This document shows positions 57,313-61,816 of a stretch of 64,000 bases of DNA, in pieces. Where the stretch lies: positions 26,755 through 90,754 of the forward strand of contig CALVMV010000003.1 of the NCBI GenBank assembly GCA_944349375.1, given 5' to 3'. Both the position numbers and the translations under genes were made by a program. How positions within the stretch are numbered: position 1 is the first letter of the stretch; each line of letters starts with the position of its first letter. The stretch is from an uncultured Clostridia bacterium. Lineage in GTDB: Bacteria; Bacillota; Clostridia; Christensenellales; UBA1242. The notes beneath the pieces are model-generated. The model searched no databases. It worked only from the letters and a program-made list of their open reading frames with translations, and was not told where the DNA came from.

Positions 57313-58470
57313 TTATTCTCCATCATCTAAAGGTGTTAAATCTTCAAGTTCTTCTAAATCTTCAAGTCCTTCAAAGGAATCATCACCGAGTTCTGTTAAT
57401 TCGTATTCAGGTTCTTTTTGAACTGGCTGAGATACCGTACTTTCGCTCTTAACTTCAATCTTCCACCCTGTTAATCTTGCAGCTAAGCGAACATTTTGCC
57501 CATTTTTGCCTATAGCTAAAGATAATTTATCATCAGGAACAATTACTCTTGAAGCTTTTAAACTTTCATTTGTTTCAACACTTAATACTTTAGCAGGGCT
57601 TAATGCTCTAGCAATATATTCAAGAGGATCTTCAGTATATTCTATCAAGTCTATTTTTTCGCCGTTTAATTCAGAAGTGATAGTATCAATTCTTTGACCG
57701 TGGAAACCAACACAAGTTCCAATAGGGTCAATGTTTTGCTTAGTTGTATAAACAGAAACCTTAGTTCTATTTCCTGCATCACGAGCGATATTTTTAATTA
57801 CAATATCTCCATTAGCTACTTCAGGAATTTCGAGTTCGAATAATTTTCTAACAAAACCTATATTGCTTCTTGTAACTTGAATTTGAGTTCCTTTGAATGA
57901 ATCTTTGATTTTCTTTACATAAACTTTTACTCTATCGCCAACATTGAATTTTTCGCCTGGGATTTGATCGGAAGGCAACATAACACCTTCAGTATGAGTA
58001 TTTGAAATTTGAACATAAACAGTTCCATTGTCAATTCTTTTTACAATAGTAGTAAGTAGTTCATCTTCTTTTTCAGAAAGTTCGTTTAGTGCGTTTTGTC
58101 TTTCCATCTCTTTTAATTTTTGCATAACTACTTGTTTAGCAGTTTGAGCTGCAATACGACCAAAATCCTTAGTAGATTCTTCTGATTGAACAATGTCCCC
58201 TACTTTGAAAGATTTTTTAATTAATTGTGCTTCGGCTAAAGAAATTTCTTTATCTGGGTCTTCTACATTATCTACAATTGTTTTATAAGAATATATTTTG
58301 ATAGTGTTTTTATCTGGATTTAATTTAACCATTGCACTTTTTGCTTCCCCATACATTTTTTTATAAGCAGAAGTTAAAGCTGTTTCTAAAGTTTGAATAA
58401 AAGCTTCTTTGTCTATTTTCTTTTCTGCTTGTAAATCTTCAAGTGCTTGAAAAAAATCTTTATTAATCAT
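57313..58470 (-). CDS. nusA: Transcription termination/antitermination factor NusA
   Basis: FGRIAAQTAKQV, S1 domain, AR.AG.RTK, LSLAIGKNGQNVRLAARLTGWKI. Confidence 0.98.
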   Translation of the reverse strand: MINKDFFQALEDLQAEKKIDKEAFIQTLETALTSAYKKMYGEAKSAMVKLNPDKNTIKIYSYKTIVDNVEDPDKEISLAEAQLIKKSFKVGDIVQSEESTKDFGRIAAQTAKQVVMQKLKEMERQNALNELSEKEDELLTTIVKRIDNGTVYVQISNTHTEGVMLPSDQIPGEKFNVGDRVKVYVKKIKDSFKGTQIQVTRSNIGFVRKLFELEIPEVANGDIVIKNIARDAGNRTKVSVYTTKQNIDPIGTCVGFHGQRIDTITSELNGEKIDLIEYTEDPLEYIARALSPAKVLSVETNESLKASRVIVPDDKLSLAIGKNGQNVRLAARLTGWKIEVKSESTVSQPVQKEPEYELTELGDDSFEGLEDLEELEDLTPLDDGE

Positions 58471-58482
58471 GATAATTTCTCC

Positions 58483-58971
58483 TTAAAATTTTATAATTGG
58501 CACAATGTGTGCTATTTTCGATTTTTCTAAAGTAATTTGATTTTGTAAAGTTGTTTTTTGTTTTTTATCTGGTAATGGTTGAATTGTTAATTCTGATGAA
58601 TTAAAACTTAAAAGTATCCCTTTAAAATTTTTAACCCCGTTTACTTTAGCAAATAATGTGATTTCAATTTCTTTCCCAATATTTCTTGCAAAATCTCGGT
58701 CATTTTTTAAAGGCCTGTCTATACCAGGTGAACTTACATTTAAAACATAAGGTTGGTCTTCAGTCGGATTCAGTTCATCTAAGATAGGGTCAATTAATTT
58801 GCTAACTTTTTCGCAATCGTTTATATCAATTCCTTTTTCGTTGTCGATATAAAAAGTTAAATTCATACCATCAGATTTTTTTGCGTATTCAATATCAACT
58901 ACTTCATAACCAATTTGATTGATAAGTGGCGAGATTTTTTCTTCGCAAATATTTTTCACTTTACTAGCCAA
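58483..58971 (-). CDS. rimP: Ribosome maturation factor RimP
   Basis: GIDINDCEKVS, Y.L.VSSPGIDRPL; TTG start with SD AAGGAGGT. Confidence 0.96.
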   Translation of the reverse strand: MASKVKNICEEKISPLINQIGYEVVDIEYAKKSDGMNLTFYIDNEKGIDINDCEKVSKLIDPILDELNPTEDQPYVLNVSSPGIDRPLKNDRDFARNIGKEIEITLFAKVNGVKNFKGILLSFNSSELTIQPLPDKKQKTTLQNQITLEKSKIAHIVPIIKF

Positions 58972-58993
58972 AATTACCTCCTTTATCTATGAA

Positions 58994-59030
58994 GCAGGGA
59001 GTGAACAAAAACTGCTCACTCCCCGTTAGA
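58994..59030 (-). ncRNA. rimP leader hairpin
   Basis: GGGAGTGAGCA-gtttt-TGTTCACTCCC stem between promoter TTGATT-17-TAAAAT and the rimP SD. Confidence 0.6.
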
Positions 59031-59083
59031 TCTAGTCTTTAATATTTTAACACATATATTATATAAAATCAACTATTTTTTTA

Positions 59084-60628
59084 TTATTTTTTTATTTTAG
59101 ATAACTCTAATAAAACTTGAGCAGTAGCAAAGGCATCATTATATGCTCTGTGTGCGCCTTCTAATGTTAAACCTAAAGCATTTACAATAGTTCCAAGTTT
59201 ATAATTTGCTAGCCTTAAATTAGAAGTTCTTGCTATTACTAAAGTGTCTATTATTTGGTTTTTAAAATATATTCCACAACTTTCGGCAGCTTTTTTGATA
59301 AACTTAAAGTCAAAACCTATAACGTTATGTCCACATAAAATACAATCTTTGCAAAAATCATTAAAATCTATTATTACATCAGAAATTAAAGGTGCATCTT
59401 TTACCATTTCGTTAGTAATATTTGTAAGATTTTGGACTTCTAAAGGAATAGGTTGTGAAGGTTTTACAAAAGTAGAAAATTTTTCTGTTAAAATTCCATT
59501 GACTATTTTTACAGCTCCAATTTCAGTGATTTCATCATTTTCAAAATCAAGACCTGTAGTTTCAATATCAAAAACCACAACGGATTTATCTTTTATATTA
59601 TCATTATATTCTGATTTTTGGTCAAATAAAAAGGCTTGTGTTTTAATCTCTATCTTTTCAATAGGAACAACATTTTTATGCAATTTCGTAACAGTATCTT
59701 CACTAATATTATCTTCTTCTATCTCTGAATTTTTTGATGCCCATGACATTTTACGAATATAATAAGTTAATGTTCCATTTAAGCCAAAATTCAAATCCCC
59801 TACACAAACAACCATCATGCCATCCTCAAGAGAGTCCATAACTTTTTCATTTGCTTTGGAGCAAAAATAGACACATTCGATTTTTTTCCCATCGTCCAAA
59901 GTAAAAGTATAAAGAGATTTTTCTTGCCCTGCTTTTTTCCCTTTTTTTATCTTAAAAGATTTTTTTGTAATTGCAGTTATTATGCCTGCCAGAATTACAG
60001 ACATTTTTGGTTTAGTATTGTTTTTTATGTATTCAGGTTGAGGGATAATTTCACTGCCAACTATTTTTTTAATAATTTCAACTTTATACCTTTCTACTTT
60101 TTTTCTAGACATGCTTGGCAAATCATCTGCCTCTATAACATCTGAAATTGTATCTTCATTTTCAATAATATTTATATCAAAGTCGGCAATAAATTTTTCG
60201 TTTAAGTAGTCAAAAAGTTGTTTTTTTAATTCTGTTTCATCTATCATTGCAAGAATATCTTTATTAAGTTTTATTTGAATTTTAATTAAATTTTCATTAT
60301 TAGTAATAGAAATATTTTCTTTAAACAAATAAGGAGATAAAGATTTTTTCTCTATATTAAAGAAATTAAAAATTTCTTTTTCTATCAATATTTCATCTAA
60401 AAAACTTTTTTTAAATTTAACCTTTACATCTGCGTTTAATGAATATTGATTTTTTAAAAATTCTTCAATGTTTTTTCTATCCTCAGCAGTCATATCATTT
60501 TGGGATAAAGGGAATAAAAAAGTAAAAGTGCATAAATTTGAATTTTTGTCATATATCACTTCGTAAATCTTTAAAAAATTGTATTTATCATTAAAAACTT
60601 TATTTAATTTTTGTAATATTTCATTCAT
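59084..60628 (-). CDS. PolC-derived protein: PolC N-terminal domain, OB fold, clamp-binding motif and DEDDh 3'-5' exonuclease; no polymerase domain
   Basis: In the polC slot (rseP-X-rimP); PolC-like N-terminus and OB; VVFDIETTGL, EIGAVKI, HN..FD..FI, HRA..DA; QAFLF motif. Confidence 0.85.
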   Translation of the reverse strand: MNEILQKLNKVFNDKYNFLKIYEVIYDKNSNLCTFTFLFPLSQNDMTAEDRKNIEEFLKNQYSLNADVKVKFKKSFLDEILIEKEIFNFFNIEKKSLSPYLFKENISITNNENLIKIQIKLNKDILAMIDETELKKQLFDYLNEKFIADFDINIIENEDTISDVIEADDLPSMSRKKVERYKVEIIKKIVGSEIIPQPEYIKNNTKPKMSVILAGIITAITKKSFKIKKGKKAGQEKSLYTFTLDDGKKIECVYFCSKANEKVMDSLEDGMMVVCVGDLNFGLNGTLTYYIRKMSWASKNSEIEEDNISEDTVTKLHKNVVPIEKIEIKTQAFLFDQKSEYNDNIKDKSVVVFDIETTGLDFENDEITEIGAVKIVNGILTEKFSTFVKPSQPIPLEVQNLTNITNEMVKDAPLISDVIIDFNDFCKDCILCGHNVIGFDFKFIKKAAESCGIYFKNQIIDTLVIARTSNLRLANYKLGTIVNALGLTLEGAHRAYNDAFATAQVLLELSKIKK

Positions 60629-60637
60629 ATTTTCATA

Positions 60638-61816
60638 TTACAACAAGAAATGTAAAATGTCAATTAATATAACTGCTCCAAACAAAACTATAAGCCCTAT
60701 TGTATGAATTAAATTTTCAACTTCTCTTTTTATTGGCTTTTTTCTTATCCATTCTATGGTTGTAAATAAAACATGCGAGCCATCTAAAGCAGGTATTGGT
60801 AAAATATTAAAAATAGCTAGGTTAGCTGATATTAAAGGTATTAAAACCAAGATATTAGCAAAATTAGCTTGCGTAAATGATGCAATCGTTGTTATTGTTG
60901 TTATTGGTCCCCCAATTGAAGAAATTGGTAATTGGAAAGTTATTAATAGCCATAGAGATTTTAATACGATCCAAGCAAGGCCTATTGCGAAAGGAACGCA
61001 TCTTTGCAATGCTTCTGTGAAAGAGTGAACATATGCTTTTGCTGTAATTCCGGTAGAGTAAACAGTTTCTTCTTCACTAAGTTCATATTCTCCTTCTTGA
61101 TTAGAGCTCAAAACTTTTTGTCGAGTAATTACAAAAAAACCCGTATAAGCTGTTGTGTATTGACCATCTCTACGAACAACCAATTCTAGTGCAGGATAAT
61201 TAGCAACTGTAGTATTGTTTTCTTCTGCCCAAGCAATAGCATTATTTAACTGAGAAGTGATGATATCGTTGTAATTTGCCCCATATGCAAAATCTATTTT
61301 TTCACCATTTATTGATATTATTACATCTCCTTCTTGCAATAATTGTTCATCATTTAAATTTACTATGTTGCTATTGATTTCAACATTATTAATTATATAT
61401 CCATTTTGTGGAGAAGTTGAACTAGTTGGAATAGAAAAAGATACAACTTGTGGAATATCATAACCTAATGTACATAATAAAATTAATGAAAAGACAACAG
61501 CAGTGGCGAAATTAAAAATGACACCAGCAAAGAAAACTAAAATTCTTTTCCAAGGAGCTTGGGCATTGAAAGAGTCTTTGCCATCGGCATTGTCATCTTC
61601 TCCTTCAAAAGCACAATATCCCCCTAAAGGAAAGATTCTTAAAGAAATAAGCTCTCCCCTTTTATTTTTGCGAGAAAATAGGGCTTTACCAAACCCTACT
61701 GAAAACTCTGTAATTTTAAAATTTAACATTCTTCCTACACAATAATGACCAAATTCATGGACTAGTACCATAAAAAGTAAAATCACTATAGCAAGAATTA
61801 TATAGAGTATAAACAT
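60638..61816 (-). CDS. rseP: RIP metalloprotease RseP/RasP (site-2 protease)
   Basis: HEFGH, FSVGFG, PLGGYC, PDZ, NILPIPALDG. Confidence 0.95.
   Translation of the reverse strand: MFILYIILAIVILLFMVLVHEFGHYCVGRMLNFKITEFSVGFGKALFSRKNKRGELISLRIFPLGGYCAFEGEDDNADGKDSFNAQAPWKRILVFFAGVIFNFATAVVFSLILLCTLGYDIPQVVSFSIPTSSTSPQNGYIINNVEINSNIVNLNDEQLLQEGDVIISINGEKIDFAYGANYNDIITSQLNNAIAWAEENNTTVANYPALELVVRRDGQYTTAYTGFFVITRQKVLSSNQEGEYELSEEETVYSTGITAKAYVHSFTEALQRCVPFAIGLAWIVLKSLWLLITFQLPISSIGGPITTITTIASFTQANFANILVLIPLISANLAIFNILPIPALDGSHVLFTTIEWIRKKPIKREVENLIHTIGLIVLFGAVILIDILHFLL

Follow-up and report, generated by a model that had tools for sequence, protein, structure and literature searches.

Three replicase make-ups have been described in bacteria, namely DnaE1 only, PolC together with DnaE1, and PolC together with DnaE3, and the Clostridia are placed in the second of them, as far as the consulted parts of two accounts go (PMC3919608, PMC12926913). 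Variants of PolC without the exonuclease insertion occur in Clostridia and Negativicutes (PMC3919608), and in Bacillus subtilis the PolC exonuclease has been described as proofreading DnaE errors within a complex of template, DnaE and PolC (PMC5627055). Here we describe a gene at 59084..60628 on the minus strand of a 64,000-nucleotide stretch of DNA (the window; contig CALVMV010000003.1, positions 26,755 to 90,754) from an uncultured Clostridia bacterium of the order Christensenellales. It encodes a polymerase-less PolC derivative, below the short form, in which the N-terminal domain, the OB fold and the DEDDh exonuclease are retained and the polymerase is gone. About half of the sampled genomes of this one order are without a PolC polymerase, yet keep these three parts as a separate protein under selection. 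No description of a polymerase-less PolC was found in the literature searched, a search that left supplements aside; truncated sequences were discarded before the trees of PMC12926913 were built, and the supplementary tables of that work may list such proteins.

The gene runs from an ATG start through 514 codons with no internal stop to a stop codon at 59084-59086. The first-pass annotation had assigned to its product a PolC-like N-terminus and OB fold, a complete set of DEDDh residues and the loss of both PHP halves and the polymerase core, and these assignments were borne out by the profile and structure comparisons that follow. The Pfam models for the PHP domain (PF02811) and the polymerase (PF07733) gave no match to the 514-residue protein. 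The C-terminal part, residues 346-514 (59087..59593, minus strand, as are all features of this protein given below), is a DEDDh 3'-5' exonuclease domain, in which RNase_T (PF00929) spans residues 351-506 with an E-value of 3.4e-35 and 122.5 bits against a cut-off of 24. Its Exo I motif (D354 and E356, 59561..59569), Exo II aspartate (D440, 59309..59311) and Exo III motif (H493 to D498, 59135..59152) contain the five catalytic residues D354, E356, D440, H493 and D498, which are invariant in 20/20 orthologues and in all 94 rows of alignment A4. The best NCBIfam model for this domain is that of PolC, NF001688, which is matched at profile positions 415-585 only; TIGR00573 (DnaQ/epsilon) scores 97.5 bits, above its cut-off of 71.5. 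The closest solved sequence is the exonuclease of Thermotoga maritima PolC (2p1j, E 3.9e-51), and in fold the domain is most like full-length PolC (9qpc_A), with the epsilon structures 2ido, 1j53 and 5fkv_D also matching.

The homology of the other two domains to PolC was found by profile-profile comparison with hhalign. The OB fold, residues 183-299 (59732..60082), has weak Pfam OB matches and is modelled as five strands and a helix; residues 186-300 align with columns 220-326 of a profile made from ten full PolCs of the order (E 1.4e-11). For the N-terminal domain, residues 1-160 (60149..60628), which consists of two tandem alpha/beta subdomains, a profile of 30 short forms aligned with one of 20 PolC N-termini over 136 colinear columns with a probability of 97.2% and E 3.3e-11, against E 0.35-0.9 for controls with one reversed and five column-shuffled templates; smaller profiles had given a weak link (E 3e-4, probability 40%). 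The suspicion that the N-terminus might be unrelated to PolC thereby fell away. Pfam's two models of the PolC N-terminal domain did not match the protein, which says little because both are above cut-off in only one of three genuine PolCs of the order. Searched against protein representatives, the N-terminal-domain profile gave 452 matches at E <= 1e-3, the best 150 of which were short forms, fragments and one repetitive protein of 2559 residues. An AlphaFold2 model based on a 94-sequence alignment (mean predicted local distance difference test score, pLDDT, 86.3) divides the protein into the N-terminal domain (1-157; pLDDT 81-90), the OB fold (183-299), a disordered linker (300-345) and the exonuclease (349-510), with a low-confidence spacer at residues 161-182 (60083..60148; pLDDT 54-57). 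A fold search with the modelled N-terminal domain found weak likeness (template modelling score 0.22-0.45) to tandem alpha/beta modules such as PrgH, BON and archaeal NusA KH domains, and no solved PolC N-terminal domain was among the matches; set against the KH topology, the second subdomain has the order alpha-beta-beta-alpha-alpha-beta. Over the whole protein NF001688 reaches 158.3 bits, under the 873-bit cut-off for PolC. As it has neither polymerase core nor PHP domain and stays under this cut-off, the protein is a PolC derivative and not PolC. In public annotation the short forms are named 'hypothetical protein' or 'ribonuclease H-like domain-containing protein'.

The linker between the OB fold and the exonuclease (residues 300-345, 59594..59731; pLDDT 42-79) has 46 residues, against about 92-100 for the PHP-N segment at this place in PolC, and beyond the exonuclease there is nothing, the protein stopping 4 residues past the exonuclease helix. 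A conserved V-V-x-P-E stretch in the linker aligns with V-V-Q-A-F-P-[DE] of PolC both in hhalign and in a MAFFT E-INS-i alignment of full PolCs with short forms, and V321 is kept in at least 90% of alignment rows; the corresponding V-V-P-I-E of our protein (residues 320-324, 59657..59671) may be what little is left of the first half of the PHP domain. In the linker, too, lies the clamp-binding-like motif that the first-pass annotation had named. The beta-clamp pentapeptide has the consensus QL[SD]LF or QxxLF and is C-terminal in PolC, according to the consulted part of PMC12309361, and the PolC consensus of this order does end in Q-L-S-L-F. In the short form Q331-A-F-L-F335 (59624..59638), in the low-confidence linker, fits QxxLF, and the sole linker helix of the model, a short one, covers residues 331-334. 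In alignment A7, 139 selected rows with fragments left out, 135 rows have a recognisable Exo I motif, and Q..[LIMF][FLM] lies within 45 residues upstream of it in 121 of the 135, Q..LF in 89; the predicted motif is thus conserved inside the disordered linker. The C-terminal clamp motif of PolC has been lost with the polymerase, and a putative equivalent now lies in the linker; dnaN, the clamp gene, was found in the window's own genome.

The surroundings of the gene are those of polC. Upstream, 9 nt away, lies rseP (60638..61816, minus strand; TIGR00054, 167 bits against a cut-off of 147.55), and downstream are rimP (58483..58971, minus strand; E 4e-40, below the curated cut-off) and, beyond it, nusA (57313-58470; TIGR01953, 387 bits). 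The rseP-polC-rimP slot proposed for the gene was thus confirmed by profile matches on either side, and the arrangement rseP-X-rimP-nusA is common to the short-form loci and, within the order, 7/10 loci with full PolC. By position, then, the gene is an orthologue of polC. The clean stop estimated at about 110 nt before rimP was measured at 112 nt (58972..59083, no strand assigned), which leaves no room for polymerase remnants. Within this spacer, read on the gene strand, a G+C-rich inverted repeat of 8 bp (GGGAGTGA ... TCACTCCC) closely precedes AAGGAGG, which resembles a Shine-Dalgarno sequence; no run of T follows the repeat, so it is not a typical terminator.

How far does this architecture extend? 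In a first draw the orthologue was present in 24/24 genomes of the window's genus, 23 times whole (frames of 511-536 residues, 39-72% identity) and once cut by a contig end, and so the possibility that close relatives carry an intact polC here came to nothing. The 16 genomes drawn from other families comprised five with the short form, ten with full PolC (1416-1474 residues) and one 51%-complete genome with a fragment. We then sampled 400 genomes of the order, each at least 90% complete, which with the window's own made 401, calling full PolC by NF001688 at E <= 1e-150 and the short form by the N-terminal-domain profile at E <= 1e-5. Full PolC was found in 188 and the N-terminal domain of the short form in 185, which confirms the architecture among relatives, and no family had both. 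Full PolC was present in all genomes, and the short form in none, in families f2, f3, f4, f5, f6, f7, f9, f10, f14, f15, f18, f21, f24, f26, f27, f29 and f31. Full PolC was absent, and the short form present, in f1 (24/24 genomes), f8 (20/25), f11 (25/25), f13 (1/1), f16 (6/6), f17 (3/3), f19 (4/4), f22 (3/3), f23 (1/1), f25 (15/15), f28 (3/5) and f30 (1/1). Neither search was positive in 28 of the 401 genomes at these thresholds, several of which, for example in f20, do match the whole protein. Among the matches listed for a 301-genome sample of the class, those spanning the whole model came from this order only; the others covered the exonuclease part, inside frames mostly of 1,280-1,600 residues. 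A whole-length relative (locus L080, 34% identity over residues 1-511) stands in a record labelled Spirochaetales bacterium, which may be a mislabelled bin or a case of gene transfer. In f21, PolC occurs in 25/25 genomes with frames of about 1331-1382 residues, and only 13/25 match the window's exonuclease at E <= 1e-8; it may be the exonuclease-less variant described for Clostridia in PMC3919608.

That the gene is kept by selection and is not decaying, as had been supposed, is supported by the invariant catalytic residues, by the single clade described below and by the ratio of nonsynonymous to synonymous substitution rates (dN/dS, omega). Six pairs were tried, in five of which dS was above 1 or undefined; the only usable one, G011/G006 (dS 0.26), gave 0.061 overall, with 0.018 for the exonuclease, 0.097 for the N-terminal domain, 0.081 for the OB fold and 0.087 for the linker. 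The short form appears to have been passed on vertically and to be subject to purifying selection in roughly half of the genomes sampled from the order.

With which polymerase does the short form work? All five near-complete PolC-less relatives had exactly one polymerase above the DnaE cut-off (frames of 1160-1216 residues) and none above that for PolC, whereas both polymerases were present in 5/5 PolC-bearing relatives. The DnaE of the PolC-less relatives types as clostridial DnaE1 (NF005298, 1457 bits against a cut-off of 1260; NF004226 is also above cut-off), does not reach the cut-offs of the DnaE models for Bacillus and Streptococcus, and has the C-terminal region as well as an internal Q-x-S-[LM]-F motif. 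Two insertions were seen in these polymerases, both confounded by shared ancestry: one after about residue 483 (PolC-lineage numbering) in 9/9 PolC-less (L015-L019, L162-L166) and 0/5 PolC-bearing relatives (L044-L048), and an extra 30-60 residues within the PHP domain of the f25 DnaEs. The clamp loader DnaX is gamma-like in the genus, with frames of 367-405 residues in each of the 24 genus genomes that gave a match, the window's own included (G000:C4:122538-123590, L168), one further relative being without a match. Frames of 524-706 residues were found in 9/10 PolC-bearing families of the same draw and in f12, whose PolC status is unclear; among the truncated lineages they measured 502-592 residues in f8, f11, f13 and f16, and 388 in f17. 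DnaX of the genus seems to be missing the C-terminal tau domains, by which the polymerase is tethered in E. coli. A second, long dnaX (608-residue frame) lies on contig C15 of the window's own assembly; C11, C14 and C15 have 52-62% G+C, against 29-30% elsewhere, and are probably foreign contigs in the bin.

We favour, with moderate confidence, the reading that the short form is a clamp-tethered trans proofreader with an added structural role. It would bind one pocket of the clamp dimer through its QxxLF motif, DnaE1 holding the other, and would trim mispaired 3' ends in trans beside DnaE1, much like epsilon in E. coli or the PolC exonuclease that serves DnaE in B. subtilis; the N-terminal and OB domains would in addition act as a tether or bind DNA in the replisome, independently of the nuclease. 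The short form is the only RNase_T-family protein found in 4/5 genus genomes, and an epsilon-like proofreading role is plausible.

Several observations weigh against this proposal. The window's own assembly (942 kb, 15 contigs, 79.55% complete) has no match to the PolC core, DnaE or PF07733, and tblastn with a relative's DnaE was also empty; the sole PHP-like match in it (E 0.078) lies in a P-type ATPase and was rejected. Because an assembly of this completeness shows none, the polymerase gene of this organism is probably in the missing fifth of the genome, and we infer its DnaE-only state from its kin. The first-pass suggestion that the lineage replicates with DnaE alone is therefore upheld for the relatives, with one DnaE in each of five, and not for the window's own genome. 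The PHP domain of DnaE keeps the nine-ligand motif HHDHEHCDH intact in all 12 sequences read (8 DnaEs and 4 of f25), a motif used to mark an 'active' PHP proofreader (PMC12926913), so DnaE may proofread by itself, and to judge by this motif DnaE1 probably does so through its own PHP domain. In f25 the orthologues (L154-L161, 485-539 residues) keep the N-terminal domain and OB fold with profile E-values of 1e-20 to 1e-38, yet at least four of the five DEDDh residues are lost in 8/8 examined, and their exonuclease domain, judged by these residues, is a pseudo-nuclease; the QxxLF motif is altered there as well, for example to Q-I-x-F-D. Candidates for another DEDDh protein that may have taken over in f25 were seen in frames of 201-366 residues. 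As f25 keeps the protein without its catalytic residues, nuclease activity is not what maintains it everywhere, and the N-terminal and OB module must have a role independent of the nuclease. The exonuclease ends the protein with no C-terminal tail like that of epsilon, and contact between the short form and DnaE is a prediction only. Finally, the literature has proposed that the N-terminal domain of PolC is linked to the clamp loader, which is uncertain here because DnaX of the genus is gamma-like.

Could the short form then be mainly a structural subunit that, by means of its N-terminal domain, OB fold and clamp motif, tethers or stabilises the DnaE1-clamp-loader assembly or binds single-stranded template DNA, with proofreading left to the DnaE1 PHP domain and the nuclease dispensable? 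The catalytically dead f25 proteins, retained in 8/8 cases beside a DnaE whose PHP motif is intact (4/4), would fit this well, as would the intact motif in all 12 DnaEs and the purifying selection on the N-terminal domain and OB fold (omega 0.08-0.10). In the window's genus, however, the exonuclease is the most constrained domain of all (omega 0.018), its five catalytic residues do not vary in any of the 94 rows of A4, and no other DnaQ-like protein was found in four of the five genus genomes. We regard a mainly structural role as tentative and on the whole unlikely. A bolder version would make the short form the obligatory third subunit of a new Firmicute replicase type, in which the N-terminal domain and OB fold couple DnaE1 and the clamp to the fork, in the genus replacing the missing tau domains, and the nuclease serves as a second proofreader; this we hold to be doubtful.

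Many clamp-binding proteins are repair enzymes, and DEDDh nucleases such as the DinG exonuclease and ExoX are near to the short form in sequence and fold. It might accordingly be a clamp-associated repair or end-processing nuclease unrelated to the fidelity of DnaE, acting for instance on damaged or blocked 3' ends or on Okazaki fragments. Such a role is improbable for a protein that descends from a replicase, has retained the replisome-specific N-terminal domain and OB fold as well as the polC slot, and is universally kept in the genus, whose genomes measure 0.8-1.3 Mb.

As to origin, we built a maximum-likelihood tree from the OB and exonuclease columns of 50 rows, in which 30 short forms, drawn from 15 families, stood beside 20 PolCs, half of them from the order and half from other orders. 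The 30 short forms make up one clade (support 100/99) on a long stem, nested among full PolCs of Clostridia, which fits one truncation event followed by vertical descent. One ancient event would have removed most of PHP-N together with all of the polymerase core and the other half of the PHP domain, and it is to this history and the trans-proofreader role jointly that our moderate confidence applies. The converse, a stand-alone protein of N-terminal domain, OB fold and exonuclease that was later fused to a polymerase to make PolC, draws on the poor resolution of the deeper nodes (76-89); it is very improbable, given that the short forms are a well-supported clade among clostridial PolCs and are limited to one order in the samples searched, that their linker aligns with a piece of PHP-N, and that PolC is spread over Firmicutes, Fusobacteria and Thermotogae (PMC11040001, as far as consulted). 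Independent metagenome contigs from three other studies span the gene end and rimP, one of them, of 6.2 kb, matching all 3,501 bases compared with 27 substitutions and two compensating single-base indels; in contigs of the three studies a 1-base insertion behind 60178 and a 1-base deletion at 60184/60185 leave the frame intact and change two codons of the N-terminal domain. That the gene arose by misassembly, is a pseudogene of recent date or is half of a polC split in two might be suspected from a bin that is 80% complete and in which three of the 15 contigs look foreign; these readings can practically be dismissed, since the architecture recurs in 24/24 genus genomes, the contigs of other studies agree, dN/dS is 0.06, and neither a full polC nor a complementary half was found in the window's own assembly, in five of five near-complete relatives or in the 213 of 401 order genomes (all sampled ones at least 90% complete) where the PolC core went unmatched.

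A make-up of DnaE1 with a PolC remnant would be a fourth beside the three reported in the consulted parts of the literature. It offers a case, open to testing, in which proofreader and polymerase have come apart, and a handle on the function of the PolC N-terminal domain, with f25 as a natural catalytic-dead comparison. If the short form were the third subunit considered above, the clade would be a natural replay of how a proofreading subunit parts from a polymerase, and nature's own experiment on the contribution of PolC to fidelity and to gene-strand bias. The PolC-less clade also provides a control group inside the Firmicutes for testing whether gene-strand bias is linked to PolC, as has been proposed (PMC11040001). 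Antibiotics directed at PolC, such as ibezapolstat (PMC13003532, PMC12592400), would find their target absent from these gut commensals, which are predicted to be spared by PolC inhibitors.

How does the short form compare with the proofreaders already known? Like E. coli epsilon (DnaQ), it is a stand-alone DEDDh nuclease of the proofreading type, by both TIGR00573 and fold matches, and it accompanies a DnaE1-type polymerase; the clamp-binding motif of epsilon adjoins the nuclease domain, as that of the short form does. Unlike epsilon, it descends from PolC and not from the epsilon lineage, has an extra module of 300 residues made up of the N-terminal domain and OB fold, and carries its clamp motif on the N-terminal side of the nuclease. 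The C-terminal tail of epsilon binds the PHP domain of alpha, whereas the short form has no alpha-binding tail and its partner DnaE keeps an intact PHP motif. With PolC itself it shares the slot, and its N-terminal domain, OB fold and DEDDh exonuclease are homologous to those of PolC and follow one another as they do there; it differs in having no PHP, palm, thumb, fingers or helix-hairpin-helix (HhH) domain, and in that its QxxLF motif lies in the linker before the exonuclease, whereas the clamp motif of PolC is C-terminal (PMC12309361). The trans proofreading of B. subtilis (PMC5627055) resembles the role proposed here, a PolC-type exonuclease acting on 3' ends held by DnaE, and by this analogy is a plausible evolutionary stepping stone; there, however, the exonuclease belongs to a full PolC that serves as main replicase and has DnaE3 as its partner, while here the exonuclease has lost the polymerase part and is paired with DnaE1. 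The exonuclease-less PolCs (PMC3919608) show that the domain set of PolC is modular in Clostridia with PolC and DnaE1, and are the reciprocal case, in which the polymerase was kept and the exonuclease lost.

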